Source: a virus
Lineage: Duplodnaviria > Heunggongvirae > Uroviricota > Caudoviricetes
Length of the DNA: 40,519 bases
IMG/VR virus record: IMGVR_UViG_2529293139_000011
Strand: one strand, 5' to 3'
Position numbers and translations under genes: made by a program. Shown here piece after piece: positions 2,556 through 37,016 of this stretch. A model generated the notes under the pieces. That model had not been told where the DNA came from, did no database searches, and was given only the letters and a program-made list of their open reading frames with translations. How positions within the stretch are numbered: position 1 is the stretch's first letter; each line of letters starts with the position of its first letter.

Positions 2556-2918
2556 ATGTTAAAGCTATTTGCAAAGTACACCTCGATTGGTGTGCTGAAC
2601 ACACTTATACACTGGGTGGTTTTTGGTGTATGTATCTATGCCGCGCATACAAACCAGGCTCTTGCAAACTTCGCAGGTTTCGTTGTGGCTGTGAGCTTTA
2701 GCTTCTTCGCGAATGCAAAATTCACATTCAAGGCATCGACTACAACGATGCGCTACATGTTATATGTCGGGTTCATGGGAACACTGAGTGCTACTGTTGG
2801 ATGGGCTGCTGATAGATGTTCACTTCCTCCAATTGTCACTCTTGTCACCTTCTCCGCCATCAGCCTGGTGTGCGGTTTCGTCTATTCAAAGTTCATTGTC
2901 TTTAGGGATGCGAAATGA
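2556..2918 (+). CDS. gtrA: Bactoprenol-linked glucose translocase (flippase) GtrA
   Basis: 120-aa small membrane protein ([25 protein letters not shown]...), first gene of a gtr operon; its stop overlaps the gtrB start. Confidence 0.85.
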
Positions 2919-3841
2919 AGATATCTCTTGTAGTTCCTGTCTTCAATGAAGAAGAAACGATACCAATTTTCTATAAAGCGGTACGTGAATTCGAAGAGTT
3001 GAAGCCATATGAAGTGGAAATTGTTTTCATAAATGACGGAAGCAAAGACGCTACGGAGTCAATCATTAACGCTCTGGCTGTTTCAGATCCTCTAGTGGTT
3101 CCGCTGTCATTTACACGAAACTTTGGTAAAGAACCAGCATTGTTTGCAGGGTTAGACCATGCAACAGGAGATGCTGTAATTCCAATTGATGTTGACCTGC
3201 AAGATCCGATTGAGGTTATTCCCCATCTGATTGAAAAGTGGCGGGCAGGCGCTGATATGGTGCTTGCTAAGCGATCAGACCGCTCAACCGATGGTCGTCT
3301 GAAGCGAAAAACTGCTGAGTGGTTCTATAAGCTCCACAACAAAATAAGCAATCCAAAGATCGAGGAAAATGTTGGTGATTTCCGGTTAATGAACCGTGAA
3401 GTTGTCGAAAATATTAAGCTCATGCAAGAACGCAACCTATTCATGAAGGGCGTACTGAGTTGGGTTGGAGGAAAGACTGATGTTGTAGAATATGTTCGCG
3501 CCGAACGCGTGGCGGGCAGCACTAAATTCAATGGCTGGAAATTGTGGAATCTAGCGCTTGAAGGGATAACAAGCTTTTCTACTTTCCCACTTCGTATGTG
3601 GACATATATCGGATTTGTTGTTGCAGCAGCTTCATTCTTCTATGGAGCATGGATGATTGCAGATAAAATACTCTGGGGAAATGAAGTGCGTGGTTACCCA
3701 TCGCTACTTGTCTCCGTACTGTTTTTAGGTGGAATTCAATTAATTGGAATAGGCGTGCTCGGGGAGTACATAGGCAGAATTTATATAGAGGTTAAGAATA
3801 GACCTCGTTATATCATAAAGGGCAATAAAAATGATATTTAG
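2915..3841 (+). CDS. gtrB: Bactoprenol glucosyltransferase GtrB (GT2 family)
   Basis: 308-aa [23 protein letters not shown]... with GT2 DXD-type motifs and C-terminal TM helices; overlaps gtrA and the following gene. Confidence 0.85.
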
Positions 3842-5510
3842 GAACAGACATACTCTTTTATCTATATTCGCTATTTTCATGTTGGTATTTCTTGTTGCAT
3901 TAAATACACCAATGCACTCTGATGACTATAGTTATTACTCACGAGGATTGGGGCTTGATGCGCACATTGCAAATTATATGCACTGGAGTGGGAGGATTGT
4001 AGCAGATTACGTATCTACCGGGATGTTGTCGATTGAGGATCATACCCTTAAGGCCCTCGTCAACTCTATAGGTGTAACATCACTTATTGTTCTCATTGCT
4101 GCAATACCTTCTCAATTATGTAAAGTTGAAATCAAACCATTAGTATTAATTGTTGTTTTTGCTTTATATTGGTCATGTAACCCAAATCTAGGACAGAACT
4201 CGTTCTGGGTTGTAGGAAGCGCGAATTACGCCTGGACTACACTATTTGTTTTATGTTTCATCTATTATTTTTTGAAGTGGATTGAAAACCAAAATACGAC
4301 TAAGATAGTTTCGTTATTTATTCTTGGTTTAATAGCAGGCTGCTCAAACGAAAATACCGCTGTAACTATAGCTCCATTGACAGTTGTTGTTGCAATCTCT
4401 TTATTTTACTTTAAAAAAATAAGATGGCAATATGCTTTATTACCAACGATCGGTGTCATTATTGGTTCTGTGACAATTATTCTTTCACCAGGAAACGCAG
4501 CAAGGGCGAAAAATATTGCGTTCGTTGATTGGTATGCAATGCCGTTAGGTGAGAGGCTAATAGAGCACTTTACTCATAGGTTTTGGTTTGCTTTCACATC
4601 CGCATGGCTTGTAATTGGGCTGCTGGTTATCTGTTCAATTGCATCATATGTTTTTTATCGAAGAAAACTACTTTCATTTTCTAATGCTTCATTATTTGCA
4701 TCAATCTCGTTTTTTGGGTGCTTCCTGCTTGCTAATGCCGCATTGGCTGGTGCTCCATACACTCCTCCGCGATCTTTTAGCATAGGGTTCTGTTTCCTTT
4801 TACTTTGCTTCTCCTGCCTTTTCACTTGGATAAATCAACAGGATGGCAAGATAAAAAGCACTTTATCTTACGCTATTTTATTAGTTTCACTAATTAATTT
4901 CATTGGCTCATATTATTTCGTTTATTCCGCTTATAAAAGAACAACGATCCAGCAGACACTTAGGGAGTCGTCGATTAGAGATGGTAGGAGCAATGGTTTG
5001 AAATCTATTTCTATCCCTGATTATTTCTTTACGCATCTTAAGAATTATAACGATAGATATGATAGATTTCATAATGAGGGAAGCTATGGCAGATACTATG
5101 GTATATCCAAAGCGCCATTACAAAAAGCAACCTTTGACTATTCTGGCATAGCATATAAACCAGTTTACAGTAAAGATGTGCCTCTATACGAGCGCGATAA
5201 TATCAAGTCTATTTTCATGTCACCGCAACAACCATTCATCAGTGGGACATTGATACTTGAGATTTCTAACAATATTGATGGGATTTTATCTCGTGATGGT
5301 GGCGTGAAAATCTTCTTACATATTTTAAAATCAGATGGAAGCATCGTTAACAAGGACTTTTTCCCAACTACTATAGAGCTTAATGGTAGATTCTATGCTG
5401 GAGTTGATCTTTCTGGAGTTGATATAAATGACATTAATAGCCTATTGATTGGTACATTCAATATTCATACGCGTCATCGATATACACAAACACAGATAAA
5501 GATTAATTAA
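3831..5510 (+). CDS. Serotype-specific O-antigen glucosyltransferase, GtrC-like (polytopic membrane N-terminal part plus a soluble C-terminal domain)
   Basis: 559-aa ORF in the third position of the gtr operon; strongly hydrophobic N-terminal ~380 aa, AT-rich codon usage typical of acquired gtrC genes; this family is highly variable so exact specificity is unknown. Confidence 0.65.
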
Positions 5511-5534: not shown

Positions 5535-7409
5535 CTAGCTGTGCAATGAGATATCCGCACTAACGATAGATGCACTTAGATTTACCAGCACCCCTGCCGC
5601 TGTATAGAATCGCAATATAACAGATTTAGCTAAAAACTCAGGTAGAATAATTGGCCCTCCGGTTGAAGCGGGCCTTATAGTACTGCTTCTAATTGCGTTG
5701 ACTGTAACATGACTTTTAAATGCAACAGTAATCTCTCCAGTCCCCGTGATAGTTGCTGATGCTATAAGTTCAGATGAATCAGTGATTGTTATTGCGCTGT
5801 TATTACTAACTATACGTGCAAACCTATCAAAATCTACCAATAAATCGGTGACATTATCCAGGCCCTGGAAGATTGATGCTCTCGGGGTGCTGATGTTATA
5901 TACAGATATTCCTGACGCTGCGGCTGTGAATCTTATAAATGAACTCGTAGAAGCACCGCCATACAATGTTTCTGAAACTCCATCGATAGTTAATTGTGAG
6001 CAACTACCAAGCAAGAAGGCATTGCTGTCACCGCGGCCCAAAATCTTTATATTTGATACTCGCGACCGTTGGCAATTTAAGGCAATTGGCACAAGTCCGC
6101 CAGTTGTAGGAGTAACCCCAGCCTTAACTTCCATTTCAAACGATACGCCATCAATAACCAATCCAGTCAAAAGCGAGCTGTCATCAGGCGTACCAGCTAG
6201 TCCATATACTGCGTTGCCGTCATATTGTATAACTCTAACATGGCCATTTTTTATCTGACATTGATTGATTACACCATCGGCGGTATTAAGTGCTATCCCC
6301 GCATTAGCTCCGTTTATTATGAAATCATCAACAATTACACGGTTACTTTTCCTTATATTAATGCCCCACATGTTCCTGTCATTAATATTGTTATATCTGG
6401 CAATAATATTTTTAACTATGATGTCTTCACAGAAATCGCCGGCTCCCTGTATTACCGATACATAGACAGCATGCCTTCCCAAATCCCCTTTATCTGCATC
6501 TGCTTCAAAATTAACGCCATCAACGATAATTCTCTTACAGCCACCAAGCAGAACTCCATAGCCGCCAGCAACAACATCAGAGTGATAACGATTCCCTCTT
6601 GAATAGGTATCTCTAATAATACTATCTACACATCGTTGCAAGTACACAGATCCCGTATAGCCGTATGTATCCGACCCGACAATCGATATATTGCTGCTGT
6701 CTGTAAAGGTAATTGCATAGGCAACATTGTTTCCCGTAGCTGGCCCATTTGTTATTAAACCGATACAGCGAAAATCTTTTATTTTTACCCCGGTTTTCGT
6801 GTCCGCAAAAAGAGCCTGACCTTTATTGATGTTAGCTACTGAGCCGCCAAACCCTTGTATTACCTGGTAATCATCATTGATAGTTATTCTAGAATCTATC
6901 GTTTGTGCATCTGATATTTGTACATCTTGGCCATTTGAAAGAACTGCTTGAATACTGTTAGCGTAACCATCTGGTCGTCGGTCGATAGCATCTAAATCTA
7001 GCTGCAGTGTCCCGCGGTGGTTTGTGCCTATTAACTGCGAACCGGTTGATGATATTAAATTTTGCTCGAGCTGATCAGGGTCATACTTCAAAACATTAGG
7101 ATAATAAAACTGCTGCGCACCATATGCATCATAAACAGCCATAGAATGGCCTTGCACAGTTACGAACTTGGCAATCTGTCCGTTATATACCGGGTAACCA
7201 GCAGCGTTAATGATGATTGGTTGCGATACAGGAACGTGAGAGCCGTCTTCGTTCTCCACATAAACCTGAATCTGGTTTTCAGGATTTACAGGATCAGTGT
7301 CAATTTTACCGATATAAATTTTGCCATTGGCAACCGCTTTAAAAGAACGAGCCATAGTGAAGAGTTGCGAAGGCATGCTTACCACAACATTTGCGGTGAT
7401 ATCTGACAT
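5535..7409 (-). CDS. Tailspike protein (P22 gp9-like head-binding domain plus a divergent beta-helix receptor-binding domain)
   Basis: ORF 5535-7457; start moved to the ATG at 7409 ([43 protein letters not shown]...), preceded by GGAG; the N-terminal ~110 aa match the conserved P22/Sf6 tailspike head-binding domain. Confidence 0.85.
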
Positions 7410-7433
7410 TTCATTGCTCCAGACGAATGATAT

Positions 7434-7459
7434 GATGCAACCATGATGTGATTGCATAC
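7434..7459. promoter_or_regulatory. Imperfect palindrome (ATGCAACC...TGATTGCAT) in the divergent mnt/tailspike intergenic region; candidate operator
   Basis: TGCAA / TTGCA inverted half-sites ~11 bp apart between two divergent start codons. Confidence 0.25.
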
Positions 7460-31305: not shown

Positions 31306-31584
31306 TCAGGCCTCAAAACTGTTGCAGCAGTCTTGAGGCTTTTCTTTTGTCAGCACCTTGGCTACTTTCTTTGCCAGTTCCGCCAATTCCTCGTCTTCAA
31401 CACCCCACTCCAGCACAGCCAGAAGCATGGCCATCTTTGGGATAAAACTGTCTTTCCATCGCGAAATTTGCGATTCATTAATCCCTAACGCGTCGGCAAC
31501 CTTTCGCTGACCACGTACAGCAATTCGATTTAGGATGTTGCTTGTAATTGCATTCGCTTTCTTGCGAGTACTTGTAAGTTGCAT
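31306..31584 (-). CDS. cII: CII-like transcriptional activator
   Basis: ORF 31306-31671; start placed at ATG 31584 with AAGGAAA upstream; the motif SQISRWK...IPKMAMLLAVLEWGV matches lambda CII. Confidence 0.75.
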   Translation of the reverse strand: MQLTSTRKKANAITSNILNRIAVRGQRKVADALGINESQISRWKDSFIPKMAMLLAVLEWGVEDEELAELAKKVAKVLTKEKPQDCCNSFEA

Positions 31585-31641
31585 ATGTAAGTATTTCCTT
31601 AACAAATAAGAAGTTATGCGCATCAACTTATGCGCGTTGTA

Positions 31642-31686
31642 TTCCCGCATTTCGGCGGGAATGAGGACCATGACTGTTAAAGAGCG
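31642..31686 (-). promoter_or_regulatory. nutR (boxA CGCTCTTTAACA at 31675-31686; boxB hairpin at 31642-31661)
   Basis: Minus-strand boxA consensus followed by the hairpin TCCCGCCGAAATGCGGGA, between cro and cII; the same boxB sequence occurs in nutL. Confidence 0.7.
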
Positions 31687-31692
31687 GTGTTA

Positions 31693-31887
31693 CTATTTGT
31701 TTTTCTTGTTGCTTGGGAAAGGACGAACTTCCTCTCCAATCACACTGCCATCAGGCTTTACCGTAACCATGATGTTACGTCCTGCCAGAATGGCCTTGCT
31801 GATAGCGCACTGGATTACACCAAAGTCACTGGCTGCTTTAGCCTGTCCATGGATTTTGGCGTAATCGGCAAGTGTCATTCGAATCAT
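31693..31887 (-). CDS. cro: Cro repressor
   Basis: ORF 31693-31893; ATG at 31887 with GGAG 7 nt upstream; [62 protein letters not shown] resembles lambda Cro. Confidence 0.85.
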
Positions 31888-31893
31888 ATGCAC

Positions 31894-31993
31894 TCTCCGT
31901 TATTAACCATGAACAAAGAATACTACAGGTATTCAAAGCAATCAATACTCAGGGTATTTTTAGTTTAAGTACCTTAGCTATTAGAATTAAGCT
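31894..31993. promoter_or_regulatory. OR / pR / pRM region with two palindromic operators: aatactacaggtatt (31919-31933) and aatactcagggtatt (31944-31958)
   Basis: AATAC-N5-GTATT palindromes between divergent cro and cI; candidate pR on the minus strand (TTGATT-17-TATTCT); TAGAAT just before the cI ATG suggests a leaderless cI transcript. Confidence 0.7.
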
Positions 31994-32710
31994 ATGGAAA
32001 ATAAAAAATCACTGACGACAGAACAGCTCGAAGACGCTAAGCGGCTTAAGGCTTTGTATGAGTCAAAAAAGAAAGAATTGGGAATAACCCAATACTCAAT
32101 CGCTGATGAACTGGGTATCACCCAAGGAGCGGTAGGGCATTATCTTAATGGCAGAAACGCGCTAAACGTTGAGGTTGCATCTGGTTTTGCACGATTGTTG
32201 CAAGTCTCAATTGCTGATTTTAGCCAGTCAATTGCTGCCAAGGTTGCAGAACAGGCAGAAAGCCTTAAGAGCGATGCCAACGTAAGGTATGCAGGGGAAT
32301 ACAGAGCAGGAAAGAGGTATCCGGTGTTAAGCAGTATCCAGGCTGGCTCGTGGTGTGAAGCATGCGAACCATACACCATTAAAGACATAGATGTTTGGCT
32401 TGAGTCTGACGCGCATATTCAAGGTAATGCGTTCTGGCTTAAAGTGGAAGGTGATTCAATGACGGCACCGGTTGGGTTAAGCATTCCAGAGGGAACATTC
32501 GTTCTTTTCGATACCGGAAGGGAGGCGATCAACGGCAGCTTGGTCATAGCAAAACTTTCTGACTCTAACGAAGCAACATTCAAGAAGCTGATAATCGACG
32601 GCGGAAATAAATACCTCAAGGGACTTAACCCTGCATGGCCTCTCGTGCCAATCAATGGAAACTGCAAGATTATAGGCGTTGCAATTGAGACAAAACTAAG
32701 GCTGGTTTGA
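31994..32710 (+). CDS. cI: CI-type prophage repressor (HTH plus S24 LexA-like autopeptidase domain)
   Basis: 238-aa ORF with an N-terminal HTH (ITQYSIADELGITQGAVGHYLNG) and C-terminal S24 motifs (GDSMTAP ... KKLI); divergent from cro. Confidence 0.85.
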   Translation: MENKKSLTTEQLEDAKRLKALYESKKKELGITQYSIADELGITQGAVGHYLNGRNALNVEVASGFARLLQVSIADFSQSIAAKVAEQAESLKSDANVRYAGEYRAGKRYPVLSSIQAGSWCEACEPYTIKDIDVWLESDAHIQGNAFWLKVEGDSMTAPVGLSIPEGTFVLFDTGREAINGSLVIAKLSDSNEATFKKLIIDGGNKYLKGLNPAWPLVPINGNCKIIGVAIETKLRLV

Positions 32711-32727
32711 TCACGCAAGGGGCGCTT

Positions 32728-33096
32728 ATGGTTGGAACCGCTATAGCAAGCTTTTTTGGGATGTTGGCAATCTCGACAATTTACGGCTTAGCGCATGCTT
32801 TTATTGCGAAATCTCTATCAGAAAAAATAAGCCAGGCTTGGGCGCATAGATCAGCTCGTTTCATGATTCTGGTGATCATGGCAATACAAGGGATATCTGC
32901 ATTTATCCTCTATGGATCAAGCTTATACCTATTGTATCAAGGCGCGACATTTACGCCTTACACCAGTGATTACGGAACTCTATACGATGGTAGTGAAGAC
33001 ATCTCTATGGCTTGGATCGTCTTTGGCTTATCTATGGCCGTGTCTGTTGTAGCAGACATCATTAAGGTAATTCTCGTCTTAACCTTCGCTGACTAA
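32728..33096 (+). CDS. Small polytopic membrane protein co-transcribed downstream of cI (rexB position); candidate exclusion / abortive-infection protein
   Basis: ORF 32707-33096 with a TTG first codon; start placed at ATG 32728 with AAGGGG upstream; ~4 predicted TM helices; no recognisable similarity to lambda RexB. Confidence 0.5.
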   Translation: MVGTAIASFFGMLAISTIYGLAHAFIAKSLSEKISQAWAHRSARFMILVIMAIQGISAFILYGSSLYLLYQGATFTPYTSDYGTLYDGSEDISMAWIVFGLSMAVSVVADIIKVILVLTFAD

Positions 33097-33227
33097 CTCA
33101 TAATCCCGGCAGCAATAGCTATCGGGATCCACTTCACATATCCCGCATAAAAAGCACTGAACAAGCAGACACCGAAAAAAATAAATATCCTTTGTATTCA
33201 TTTGTTTATCATTATTTCATCAAAAAT

Positions 33228-33268
33228 AAATACCTTGGGTATTTACACAATAAAATACCTACAGTATT
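33228..33268. promoter_or_regulatory. OL / pL region with two palindromic operators: aataccttgggtatt (33228-33242) and aatacctacagtatt (33254-33268)
   Basis: Same AATAC-N5-GTATT consensus and spacing as at OR; candidate pL TTTACA-17-TATTCT overlaps the operators; upstream of nutL and N. Confidence 0.65.
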
Positions 33269-33315
33269 CTTTAGCCATCAGCAGGACGCTGGTAGCCAAA
33301 CGGAACAGATTGGCA

Positions 33316-33357
33316 GGCTCTTTAACATTGATGGGATTGTCCCGCCGAAATGCGGGA
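33316..33357 (+). promoter_or_regulatory. nutL (boxA GGCTCTTTAACA at 33316-33327; boxB hairpin TCCCGCCGAAATGCGGGA at 33340-33357)
   Basis: boxA-like sequence followed by a hairpin identical to the nutR boxB, upstream of N. Confidence 0.7.
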
Positions 33358-33464
33358 ACCAAAGAGTAGTTGGCTTTGGGGTGACGTGAAGTGCAGCTGC
33401 ACGACGGCAACCGGAAGATAAGCACCCGGCGCGTCACCGCCAAAGTCAATCATCGGAGGTCAAC

Positions 33465-33770
33465 ATGACAGTAGTCATTACATATCTGGCTGACGATAAC
33501 GCCAGAAATCGCCGCAGAGCACGCAGACAGGCTCAACGTGAACAGGCAATGCAAGAACAGCGACTGGCGCGAAAGATTGCGCTAAAGCTCTCTGGTTGCG
33601 TCAGAGCAGATAAAGCAGCATCACTCGGAAGCCTTCGCTGCAAGAAGGCAGAAGAAATCGAGCGTAAACAGAATCGTATTTACTACAGCAAGCCACGCAG
33701 TGAAATGGGTGTGACTTGCTCAGGCCGCCAGAAGCGACGCGGAAAATCAATTCCAGCTTATTACGATTGA
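33465..33770 (+). CDS. N: N-type antitermination protein
   Basis: 101-aa ORF with an N-terminal arginine-rich motif (NARNRRRARRQAQREQ) and a C-terminus (ERKQNRIYYSKPRSEMGVTCSGRQKRRGKSIP) resembling lambda N; preceded by GGAGG. Confidence 0.8.
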   Translation: MTVVITYLADDNARNRRRARRQAQREQAMQEQRLARKIALKLSGCVRADKAASLGSLRCKKAEEIERKQNRIYYSKPRSEMGVTCSGRQKRRGKSIPAYYD

Positions 33771-33778
33771 GGTGAGCC

Positions 33779-33943
33779 ATGCTCAAGAAAGTCAAACGCC
33801 GACTTTACAAAGAAGGTAGATATTCATGCCAATTGCCAAAATGCGACACAACAAAATGGAGTGTCGATGATTGGTGTAACTGGATAGATAGATACGGAAC
33901 TTGGTGGGAACGTATTTATTTTCGCGGCAAACCACTTATTTGA
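33779..33943 (+). CDS. Small Cys/Trp-rich hypothetical protein downstream of N
   Basis: 54-aa ORF MLKKVKRRLYKEGRYSCQLPKCDTTKWSVDDWCNWIDRYGTWWERIYFRGKPLI, translated by hand (below the ORF-track size cut-off). Confidence 0.3.
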   Translation: MLKKVKRRLYKEGRYSCQLPKCDTTKWSVDDWCNWIDRYGTWWERIYFRGKPLI

Positions 33944-33951
33944 GGTGAGAT

Positions 33952-34038
33952 ATGGAAGAAGAATTTGAAGAGTTCGAAGAGCATCCGCAGGATGTGATGG
34001 AACAATACCAGGACTATCCGTATGACTACGACTATTGA
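33952..34038 (+). CDS. Very small, highly acidic hypothetical peptide
   Basis: 28-aa ORF MEEEFEEFEEHPQDVMEQYQDYPYDYDY with GAGGTGAG upstream. Confidence 0.25.
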   Translation: MEEEFEEFEEHPQDVMEQYQDYPYDYDY

Positions 34039-34222
34039 TAAGAATCAATGGTGTGGACAATTCAAACGATGCAATGGATGCAAGTTGCAATCGGAATGCA
34101 TGGTTAAGCCTGAAGAAATGTTTCCTGTAATGGAAGATGGGAAATATGTCGATAAATGGGCAATACGAACGACGGCAATGATTGCCAGAGAACTTGGTAA
34201 ACTGAACAACAAGGCTGCCTGA
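34022..34222 (+). CDS. Small Cys-rich hypothetical protein
   Basis: 66-aa ORF with CGQFKRCNGCKLQSEC; early-left operon. Confidence 0.4.
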   Translation: MTTTIDKNQWCGQFKRCNGCKLQSECMVKPEEMFPVMEDGKYVDKWAIRTTAMIARELGKLNNKAA

Positions 34223-34892: not shown

Positions 34893-35861
34893 ATGAGTGA
34901 AGTAACAGATTTAGTTGTTATTGAAAAAGCAAATGCAATGACTGTATTTCAGTCTGCCGACCAGATTGAAGAAATCCTTCAAAAGGTTGAACGTGAAGTT
35001 ATGTCCTTTGTGCCTGATATCACAACGGCAAAGGGCAGAAAGGAGATCGCTTCTCTGGCGTATAAAGTTGCGCAGACGAAAACATATCTCGATGGTCTTG
35101 GCAAAGACCTTGTTGCTGAACTGAAGGAAATTCCAAAGCTAATTGATGCTAACCGCAAGACAGTGCGTGATCGCCTTGATGAGCTGAAAGCCAAGGCGCG
35201 CCAGCCTCTTACTGATTATGAGGAAGAACAGGCGCGGATTAAAGCCGAAGAAGAAGCTAAGGCAGCAGCTGAAGCTCTCGCAAAGCAAATTGAGTCTGAC
35301 CATGAAATAGCTATTTTGATGGATCGCGAATTTGACCGCCAAAGAGAAGAGGCAAGACTCAAAGCGGAGCAGGAAAAGCGAGAGCATGAAGAACGATTAA
35401 AAAGAGAAGCTGAAGAGAAAGCCAGAGCAGAAGCCGAAGCAAAGGCAAAAGCCGAAATTGAAGCAGCAGCAAGGCGAGAAGCAGAAGCTAAGGCCGCAGC
35501 GGAACGTGCAGAGCGTGAACGCATTGAAGCCGAGCAACGAGCACAGCGCGAAGCAAAAGAGGCAGCAGAACGAGCTGAAAGAGAAAAGCAGGCAGCAATT
35601 GAAGCAGAACGCAGAAAAGCACAGGAGGAGGCTGAACGAATCCGGCGCGAGGCTGAAGCAAAAGAGCAAGCCAGAATAGCAGAAGAAAAAAGAATCAAGG
35701 AAGAAGAAGAGCGTAGAGCAAAGGATAAAGCTCACCGGAAAGAAGTAAATAACAAAATACTTGCTGACCTTATCAAGGTTGGCGCATCAGAAGATGTTGC
35801 TAAAAATATCATAACAGCCATCGTAAAAGGCGAAGTATTCGCAACAAAAATAACCTACTAA
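34893..35861 (+). CDS. Coiled-coil protein with a long low-complexity Ala/Glu/Lys/Arg repeat region; function unknown
   Basis: ORF 34827-35861; start placed at ATG 34893 after GGAGG; central ~180 aa are EAEAKAKAE / RREAEAK-type repeats. Confidence 0.6.
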   Translation: MSEVTDLVVIEKANAMTVFQSADQIEEILQKVEREVMSFVPDITTAKGRKEIASLAYKVAQTKTYLDGLGKDLVAELKEIPKLIDANRKTVRDRLDELKAKARQPLTDYEEEQARIKAEEEAKAAAEALAKQIESDHEIAILMDREFDRQREEARLKAEQEKREHEERLKREAEEKARAEAEAKAKAEIEAAARREAEAKAAAERAERERIEAEQRAQREAKEAAERAEREKQAAIEAERRKAQEEAERIRREAEAKEQARIAEEKRIKEEEERRAKDKAHRKEVNNKILADLIKVGASEDVAKNIITAIVKGEVFATKITY

Positions 35862-36309: not shown

Positions 36310-36410
36310 TGGCGACCGCGAAGGAATGCGGGTATGCCTTAATTTGTCCCGAGTCGAAGTATTAAATCAGCGTTATTTTCTTGGGCCGTGTCCATTCTGA
36401 GATCAAACAT

Positions 36411-37016
36411 ATGAGCAAAGAATTTTATGCAAGGCTGGCAGCCATTCAGGAGAATCTGAACGCGCCAAAGAATCAGTACAACTCATTCGGTAAATATAAA
36501 TACAGAAGCTGCGAAGACATTCTTGAAGGCGTTAAGCCGTTACTGAATGGCCTGTTTTTATCAATCAGCGATGAAGTTGTGTTGATTGGAGAACGGTATT
36601 ACGTGAAAGCAACGGCAACTATTACTGATGGCGAAAACAGTCATACGGCAACCGCTCTTGCACGAGAGGAAGAAAGCAAGAAAGGAATGGATTCTGCACA
36701 AGTTACTGGAGCTACAAGCTCTTATGCACGCAAGTATTGCCTCAATGGTTTGTTCGGCATTGATGATGCGAAAGATGCAGATACCGACGAGCATAAACAT
36801 CAGCAGAACGCAGCAGCAAAGCAATCAAAGCCATCACCTACACCTGAACAGGTTCTAAAAGCATTCACTGACGCAGCATTGCAGAAAAACACCGTGGAAG
36901 AGCTTAAACAGGCGTTCGCCAAAGCGTGGAAGATGCTCGAAGGCACACCGGAGCAGCACAAAGCGCAGGACGTTTACAACATCAGACGAGACGAATTAGA
37001 AGGAGCGGCTGCTTAA
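36411..37016 (+). CDS. erf: ERF-family single-strand annealing recombinase (P22 Erf-like)
   Basis: ORF 36381-37016; start placed at ATG 36411 (MSKEFYARLAAIQENLNAPKNQYNSFGKYKYRSCEDILEG...); N-terminal domain recognised as Erf. Confidence 0.8.
   Translation: MSKEFYARLAAIQENLNAPKNQYNSFGKYKYRSCEDILEGVKPLLNGLFLSISDEVVLIGERYYVKATATITDGENSHTATALAREEESKKGMDSAQVTGATSSYARKYCLNGLFGIDDAKDADTDEHKHQQNAAAKQSKPSPTPEQVLKAFTDAALQKNTVEELKQAFAKAWKMLEGTPEQHKAQDVYNIRRDELEGAAA

Follow-up and report, generated by a model that had tools for sequence, protein, structure and literature searches.

What does a lambdoid prophage keep immediately behind its repressor gene, and is the gene found there necessarily one for defense? 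The interval between cI and the promoter pL is continuously transcribed in lysogens, and those of its occupants that have been studied, i.e., rexAB and bstA, are defensive. In the prophage considered here (IMG/VR record IMGVR_UViG_2529293139_000011; 40,519 nucleotides (nt), referred to below as the window), this slot is filled by an open reading frame (ORF) identified as hkaS of coliphage HK620 (AAK28867; genome AF335538), where the product is annotated "unknown"; the two proteins share 97% amino-acid (aa) identity. The gene fills the slot in HK620-, HK630/mEpX2- and Stx2c-type phages as well as in Salmonella, Hafnia and Buttiauxella prophages, and has been listed as "unknown" since 2001. The data discussed below show that hkaS is a real gene under purifying selection, and its product is predicted to span the membrane three times. 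As regards function, we favor, by analogy with known exclusion proteins, the reading that HkaS is a lysogen-expressed inner-membrane protein that would exclude superinfecting phages at the cytoplasmic membrane, to which we assign a probability of about 0.35.

Evidence for selection comes from comparison of about 128 loci that were fetched, in which all copies are intact unless truncated by the end of a contig, i.e., none of approximately 124 full-length copies carries a nonsense or frameshift mutation. The ratio of nonsynonymous to synonymous substitution rates (dN/dS) of hkaS is 0.14-0.2 in pairs for which the synonymous rate (dS) is unsaturated, while the same genome pairs give 0.03 for cI. 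Because dS is the same for the two genes (0.69 for hkaS vs 0.74 for cI), they appear to have diverged together as one block. Their linkage is also seen in the distribution. Of 5426 complete E. coli genomes, 146 (about 2.7%) contain cI and hkaS, each at 147 places that are all chromosomal; no HK620-type repressor without hkaS was found in these genomes, and both genes are present in 16 of 16 phage records. The gap between cI and hkaS is 17-20 nt in all cI-linked copies, and the 122-aa frame is kept down to 52% aa identity.

Among close alleles hkaS is the more variable of the two genes in amino-acid sequence: its variable codons are nonsynonymous in 26 and synonymous in 24 cases, and the corresponding numbers for cI are 8 and 42 (Fisher p = 0.0003). 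Across the cI/hkaS boundary in 110 close relatives, the nucleotide diversity is 0.0059 in cI vs 0.013 in hkaS; 96 of the 110 copies encode a cI protein of 100% identity, and HkaS is found as 29 protein variants. Variants of high frequency are M51I and S93T/M94V, and the allele of the window (M51, S93, M94) is a minor one, found in 6 of the 110 copies. In its GC content (approximately 0.44) hkaS does not stand out from cI, and the gene therefore displays no compositional signature of a moron.

The window is a mosaic P22-like (Sf6/HK620-type) prophage that adjoins a tRNA-Arg(CCT) gene, and all of the HK620 elements OR1-3, pR, tIMM, OL1-3, pL and nutL are present in it with zero mismatches. The components of the immunity region that frame hkaS are, in order of position:

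31693-31893, minus strand: cro, divergent from cI.
31918-31934, OR1; 31943-31959, OR2; 31967-31983, OR3: operators, exact matches to those of HK620 (AF335538).
31994-32710, plus strand: cI repressor, 238 aa, 717 bp, with HTH_3 (PF01381) and Peptidase_S24 (PF00717) domains, PHROG 4; first cistron.
32717-32722, plus strand: Shine-Dalgarno sequence AAGGGG of hkaS, with a 5-nt spacer to the ATG, read from the sequence.
32728-33096, plus strand: hkaS coding sequence, 122 aa plus stop (TAA at 33094-33096); second and last cistron of the cI operon.
33103-33128, plus strand: hairpin AUCCCGG-CAGCAAUAGCUAU-CGGGAU, 7 nt past the hkaS stop, found in both the minimum-free-energy and the centroid folds.
33179-33209, plus strand: tIMM, at which transcription from cI would putatively terminate; AT-rich hairpin, then a T-rich tract; exact HK620 match.
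33206-33222, OL3; 33228-33244, OL2; 33253-33269, OL1; 33242-33277, pL; plus strand: exact HK620 matches.
33465-33770, plus strand: N-like antiterminator, downstream of hkaS.

The program-listed ORF (32707-33096, plus strand) starts at a TTG and would encode 129 aa. The start of hkaS is nevertheless the ATG at 32728, 17 nt after the cI stop codon (32708-32710), because diverged homologues keep this ATG and the ribosome-binding site and do not keep the TTG extension. A purine-rich Shine-Dalgarno sequence is found at the equivalent spot in all of these homologues, including copies in another genomic context. A preliminary description of this DNA had placed a protein of about 122 aa, with its own AAGGGG site and a likely ATG at 32728, immediately downstream of cI, and all of these assignments stand. 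The gene order, cro <- OR -> cI -> hkaS -> OL/pL -> N, is the mirror image of the lambda map with rexA-rexB after cI. The switch region OR1-OR3 (pR/pRM) drives cro leftward and cI-hkaS rightward in the orientation of the window, and the pL region, i.e., the start of the N operon, forms the downstream boundary of the cI-hkaS unit; here a consensus scan independently called a promoter (TTTACA-17-TATTCT, 33242-33270). Since hkaS is the sole gene between cI and pL (no other family-matching ORF is found in 32710-33240), the earlier statements that it occupies the position equivalent to rexB, i.e., the interval that holds rexAB in lambda, and that it does so as a single gene with no RexA partner, agree with the present analysis.

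In the annotation of HK620, hkaS lies between cI and tIMM ("termination of cI transcript"), followed by OL3-OL2-OL1/pL; in the window the gene ends about 80 nt ahead of tIMM/OL3/pL. On the plus strand, the consensus scan called nothing promoter-like from OR to pL; it also found no terminator in the gap that separates hkaS from cI, and no sign of an internal promoter similar to pLIT. By analogy with cI-rexA-rexB of lambda, there are strong grounds to assume that cI and hkaS are co-transcribed from pRM, and additionally from pRE during establishment. Expression of hkaS in the lysogen may likewise be soundly inferred, because neither a terminator nor a promoter separates it from cI, and because tIMM is placed after hkaS in HK620. 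The anatomy and operon placement of hkaS are nearly certain.

The hydropathy profile of HkaS (Kyte-Doolittle) has maxima at residues of approximately 3-27, 45-70 and 93-121. An AlphaFold2 model based on an alignment of eight sequences (mean predicted local distance difference test (pLDDT) 89.5, predicted template modeling score (pTM) 0.76) comprises helices at residues 2-29, 31-38 (short), 41-74 and 89-121, as well as a beta-hairpin at 78-86. The modeled protein is thus a membrane protein with three transmembrane (TM) helices and no soluble domain; neither a signal peptide nor a lipobox was found in it. The three hydrophobic spans and long helices bear out the membrane location given in the preliminary description, while the count of about four TM helices given there has to be corrected to three, because the middle span, with its 26 residues, could not accommodate a helical hairpin.

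In all of nine diverged sequences the first loop carries 4-6 Lys/Arg residues, and the second 0-1 Lys/Arg together with 2-4 Asp/Glu. According to the positive-inside rule, the N-terminus and loop 2 would therefore be periplasmic, and loop 1 and the C-terminus cytoplasmic, i.e., the predicted topology is N-out/C-in. Loop 1 (17 residues, basic, predicted to be cytoplasmic) contains a short amphipathic helix and the conserved pattern K33..Q36.W38.H40..A43R44F45, while loop 2 is predicted to form an acidic periplasmic beta-hairpin of about 20 residues. Invariant residues are K33, Q36, W38, H40 and A43-R44-F45 in the cytoplasmic loop and at the entry to TM2, Q54 within TM2, Y67, L69, Y70, T74, G88, W96, F99, D110, K113 and the C-terminal VLTFAD; three of these, Q54, D110 and K113, are polar residues located within the membrane. 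Invariant columns are more frequent on the cytoplasm-proximal side (24 of 58) than on the periplasmic side (12 of 64; Fisher p = 0.009).

As judged from sequence, HkaS constitutes a narrow orphan family. PHROG 6534 ("unknown function") matches residues 1-122 of 122 with E = 4.6e-79, and a word-indexed search yielded 12 clusters (at 90% identity), none of which falls below 52% identity. The family is not extendable beyond these, because a HMMER profile search of 1.84 billion representative proteins returned one 50%-identity cluster and one 44-aa fragment. All members originate from prophages of Enterobacterales; homologues at 82%, 61%, 55% and 52% identity, found in Hafnia, Salmonella, Buttiauxella and metagenomes, are all exactly 122 aa long with an ATG start. 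At the nucleotide level, positions 32600-33300 are 98% identical to 16 phage records, including HK620, HK630, mEpX2, HK140, HF4s and two Stx2c-converting phages, and the stretch cI-hkaS-pL is 98% identical to that of HK620. The gene is thus carried on podovirus (HK620), siphovirus (HK630, mEpX2, HK140) and Stx2c phage backbones.

A second genomic context is found in two metagenomic loci, denoted L127 and L129, in which a homologue of 58-61% identity does not adjoin a repressor gene:

L127, 2393-4475: hkaS second-context stretch.
L129, 29-1869: hkaS second-context stretch.

In both loci the order is tRNA-Met/Phe/Thr, hkaS, a conserved 72-aa ORF, a P21-type holin, lysozyme and spanin, with hkaS 21 nt past the last of the three phage tRNA genes and about 600 nt upstream of the holin-lysozyme-spanin cassette. 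The segment between the tRNA and lysis genes is the late-operon moron slot of lambdoid phages, occupied by stx in Stx phages. Only the ribosome-binding site and the ORF are common to these and the cI-linked copies; the Shine-Dalgarno region, aaggacttc(c/t)aaATG, is almost the same as in the cI-linked lineage of Salmonella. The same gene is thus present at non-homologous positions, i.e., in the cI slot and in the slot between the tRNA and lysis genes, as is characteristic of morons, and it appears to behave as an autonomous single-gene moron that was transferred independently to a second locus. This second context, together with the podovirus, siphovirus and Stx backbones, shows that hkaS is self-contained, does not need a phage-encoded partner and is not bound to one virion type. 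A further rearrangement is seen in a locus from uncultured Buttiauxella (L012, 2067-3369), where cro and the N-terminal helix-turn-helix domain of cI are unrelated to the HK620 type, while the S24 C-terminal domain of cI is nearly the same as in that type and is still followed by hkaS. The hybrid repressor points to a recombination joint inside cI.

In the model that we favor, hkaS would be co-transcribed with cI such that the protein is made continuously in the lysogen. HkaS would insert into the inner membrane and stop superinfecting phages at the step of genome delivery across the cytoplasmic membrane, either by disturbing the membrane conduit of the incoming phage or by shielding an entry factor in the inner membrane of the host. 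Precedents for this mode of action would be SieA of P22, gp15 of HK97 and DicB, the latter two of which are named as further precedents in the exclusion literature. Exclusion is ranked first because of the precedents at this hotspot and because of the SieA-like design of HkaS. The interval between cI and N is a prophage defense hotspot, of which the occupants rexAB and bstA are anti-phage (PMC8585504), and genes 44/45 of epsilon34, located downstream of the repressor, are presumed to be similar (PMC2629481). Like hkaS, both bstA of the Salmonella phage BTP1 and the epsilon34 genes are accessory genes placed directly after the repressor with a presumed shared promoter (PMC8585504, PMC2629481). 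BstA itself differs from HkaS, to which it is unrelated, in being a large soluble protein that binds DNA, acts by abortive infection and has a cognate self-immunity element, aba. SieA of P22 has about 162 aa and three predicted TM helices, resides in the inner membrane and, with no other protein required, prevents the delivery of DNA through interference with the ejection-protein conduit or with a host membrane factor (PMC10883804). The design of SieA is the one predicted for HkaS, namely a single small prophage-expressed protein of the inner membrane that has three putative TM helices and lacks a soluble domain, and SieA is on paper the closest architectural and mechanistic analogue of HkaS. 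HkaS is not a member of the SieA family and has no sequence similarity to SieA of P22; the latter (162-164 aa) is encoded in the "ant moron" of the late region and has its own promoter.

Comparison with RexB gives a different picture. The likeness consists of the slot between cI and tIMM/pL, the small polytopic membrane protein and the presumed expression from pRM/pRE. In contrast, HkaS has three TM helices instead of four, 122 aa instead of 144 and no sequence similarity to RexB; no RexA partner is found beside hkaS, and only 17 nt separate it from cI. Because HkaS agrees with RexB in position but not in sequence or architecture, it should not be called RexB-like; the earlier RexB-type framing is thus retained as far as position is concerned, while the analogy itself is weak (three TM helices vs four, no sensor partner). 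Having neither a soluble domain nor a partner, HkaS is poorly suited to RexA-like cytoplasmic sensing and well suited to act within the membrane, and in the model that we favor it would not act as a RexA-triggered channel of the RexB type.

The lower conservation of the periplasm-facing halves also speaks for exclusion, and the raised polymorphism of hkaS fits an interface that evolves against phage partners; relaxed constraint would give the same pattern of polymorphism. A number of observations weigh against exclusion at the membrane. Most of the hkaS polymorphisms are conservative I/V/L/M or S/T swaps, as expected of neutral drift in TM helices, and the most conserved face of HkaS is cytoplasmic, which is not an obvious prediction for a periplasmic conduit-blocker. 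In L127 and L129 the gene is found in the late operon beside lysis genes, a slot that implies late lytic expression, when an entry block would be of little use. Searches for relatives yielded no counterpart either. No match to HkaS was found in Pfam or NCBIfam, so that homology lends no support to any function, and none was obtained with the PADLOC-DB v2 defense models (E <= 10) or in a sequence profile search of the PDB; fold searches returned generic helical bundles only, with no informative match. In direct comparisons the hhalign probability was 0.6% for lambda RexB (in line with the lack of RexB similarity noted earlier, and with no RexB match in Pfam, PHROGs or PADLOC), 1.6% for lambda SieB and 0.3% for type A SieA of P22, for which no SieA PHROG match was obtained either. 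The literature searched on HK620 superinfection, lambdoid defense hotspots and inner-membrane exclusion yielded no work on the function of hkaS.

The alternative that survives best, although we consider it unlikely, is lysogenic conversion unrelated to phage, in which HkaS would benefit the host, e.g., as an orphan immunity protein against pore-forming colicins or microcins, or by modulating a transporter, a sensor kinase or a stress response of the cell. Colicin immunity proteins of the E1 type are inner-membrane proteins of about 110 aa with three TM helices. The size of HkaS, its three TM helices and the absence of a soluble domain match bacteriocin-immunity proteins and small regulatory membrane proteins, and the expected constitutive expression from the prophage, the conserved cytoplasmic face, suggestive of a host partner, and the retention of hkaS across E. 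coli, Salmonella, Hafnia and Buttiauxella prophages are also consistent with a benefit to the host. However, HkaS matches no colicin- or microcin-immunity family nor any other Pfam or NCBIfam model, and it is found in phage contexts only; all 147 places in E. coli are chromosomal, and all contexts examined are lambdoid, none of them on plasmids or beside bacteriocin genes.

Somewhat less probable again is abortive infection, where oligomers of HkaS would form a pore, or an assembly like that of holins, which stays latent until membrane proteins of the infecting phage (e.g., holin, ejection proteins) trigger it directly; the outcome would be depolarization or premature lysis, as with a RexB acting without RexA or with lactococcal AbiZ. 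Class I holins, such as lambda S105, have three TM helices and an N-out/C-in topology. This architecture is shared by HkaS and by the E1-type immunity proteins, and at about 100-120 aa both class I holins and the E1-type proteins are of similar size. The invariant polar or charged residues Q54, D110 and K113 inside TM helices, the location of hkaS in the rexAB slot and, in one lineage, its position about 600 nt upstream of a holin-lysozyme-spanin cassette also speak for a latent pore. On the other hand, HkaS has neither a sensor partner nor a cytoplasmic domain with which to sense infection, it displays no similarity to RexB or to the holin families in Pfam and PHROGs (E <= 1), and it ends in TFAD where holins typically carry a charged C-terminal tail. 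Furthermore, in contrast to holin and immunity genes, hkaS adjoins no endolysin or bacteriocin gene in the window, where the lysis genes are elsewhere, and it has no family match. In L127 two terminator-like hairpins and another ORF lie between hkaS and the holin gene, a separation expected of an unrelated moron.

Regulation of the phage itself from the membrane, e.g., of the FtsH/HflKC-dependent turnover of CII/CIII, of repressor stability or induction, or of lysis timing, is in our view improbable. It would account for the perfect linkage to this repressor family and the equal dS, which imply long co-inheritance, and for the Buttiauxella locus, where the N-terminal domain of cI and cro were replaced and the C-terminal domain of cI and hkaS are still together; transcription from pRE during establishment, as assumed from lambda biology, also fits, and RexB is reported to affect proteolysis of phage proteins. 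Nevertheless, the L127 and L129 copies are located away from any repressor gene, physical adjacency explains the linkage to the 3' end of cI equally well and, to our knowledge, other lambdoid immunity regions do without hkaS, the slot being empty in P22. More doubtful still is a more specific proposal, namely that HkaS is a membrane-anchored accessory of the immunity switch that couples the state of the envelope or membrane to repressor function or induction. This proposal would explain why hkaS is not lost from HK620-type cI operons, why its synonymous divergence is like that of cI and why, in L012, it is attached to the C-terminal domain of cI, which is the one involved in cleavage and oligomerization. 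Finally, a chance or decaying ORF in the 3' untranslated region of cI, as might be suggested by the lack of a known domain and the very narrow distribution, is effectively refuted by the length, frame, ribosome-binding site and start that are conserved to 52% identity, the dN/dS well below 1, the absence of disrupted copies, the confident AlphaFold2 model and the independent transfer of the intact ORF to a second locus.

From the above discussion, HkaS is filed as a new sequence family among small prophage-expressed inner-membrane accessory proteins. Databases already listed the gene, either under the name hkaS or as a hypothetical protein, and for similar genes the analogy in position to rex had been noted; new are the three-TM N-out/C-in model, the purifying selection, the finding that hkaS and cI are retained 1:1, the very narrow distribution of this orphan family, the second context between tRNA and lysis genes, which proves autonomy, and the explicit negative tests against RexB, SieB and SieA. 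A membrane moron behind cI will not surprise the specialist, but hkaS is common, uncharacterized and compact, with 369 bp that move with little beyond their own ribosome-binding site. If HkaS does exclude phages at the membrane, it would define a family, new in sequence, of inner-membrane factors that exclude phages as single proteins, of relevance for the prediction of phage host range and for phage therapy against E. coli and Shiga-toxin-producing E. coli (STEC). If its role is unrelated to exclusion, hkaS is a counter-example to the assumption that repressor-adjacent genes are defense genes.

As regards the 3' end of the unit, the hairpin at 33103-33128 is stable and is not followed by a U-run; it is possibly a stabilizer of the 3' end or part of a terminator. 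The Hafnia-type lineage keeps it at this spot with two changes in the loop, and the remaining lineages have a different hairpin at the equivalent spot, which in Buttiauxella L012 is a canonical intrinsic terminator. A hairpin or terminator thus follows hkaS in every lineage, while in the window the gene has no predicted promoter of its own and would borrow pRM. Because tIMM was not called as an intrinsic terminator by the consensus scan, it remains putative. Insertions and length differences among the relatives are found only beyond nutL and not between hkaS and pL, such that the distance from hkaS to N is 368-956 nt and the hkaS-pL segment is constant; the nutL-to-N leader (33316-33464 in the window, with equivalents in L017-L097) is a hotspot for insertions of about 90-540 bp. 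An Rfam scan of 31500-34000 gave nothing credible.

A minus-strand ORF at 33079-33201, convergent with hkaS and abutting OL3, was considered as a partner or toxin gene and rejected: no Shine-Dalgarno sequence precedes it, it is polymorphic for a frameshift, and in diverged lineages nothing of it is conserved beyond the hairpin-encoded part. The ORF encodes a hydrophobic peptide of 35 aa, MNTKDIYFFGVCLFSAFYAGYVKWIPIAIAAGI(I/M)G, in about 80 of some 110 close relatives; about 26 others, as well as the window, have a 1-nt homopolymer change (in the A-run at approximately 33174-33180) that results in a Cys-rich ORF of 40 aa that overlaps the 3' end of hkaS. It is probably non-coding tIMM sequence, with a superficial likeness to a type I toxin peptide. 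Three other candidates were set aside. A Pfam line for TssN obtained with HkaS (E = 0.066) was below the cutoff. The small RNA svsR at the 3' end of a cI gene (PMC12803456) belongs to an icd-integrated prophage, and no link to the hkaS region was seen. The "phage repressor" resistance gene of E. coli Nissle (PMC5987069) was defined by a 410-bp amplicon, too short for the 717-bp cI, which in the window is 99.6% identical in aa sequence to that of HK620.

Elsewhere in the window, the tRNA-Arg(CCT) gene (1009-1083) at the prophage end is a likely attachment site; integration at argW is described for Sf6, HK620 and Kapi1 (PMC8787464). It is followed by an integrase-sized ORF (1209-2402) and by three consecutive ORFs of 120, 308 and 559 aa (2556-5510), the sizes and order of which suggest a candidate gtrA/gtrB/gtrC cluster for O-antigen glucosylation, and then by a tailspike-sized ORF (5535-7457, minus strand). 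A ral homologue (34022-34222) and an Erf-type recombinase (36381-37016) are also present. Between these, in the pL operon, an ORF of 322 aa (34893-35861, plus strand) encodes a coiled-coil-like protein extremely rich in Glu, Lys, Ala and Arg that matches only PHROGs of unknown function (phrog_1376, phrog_21365).

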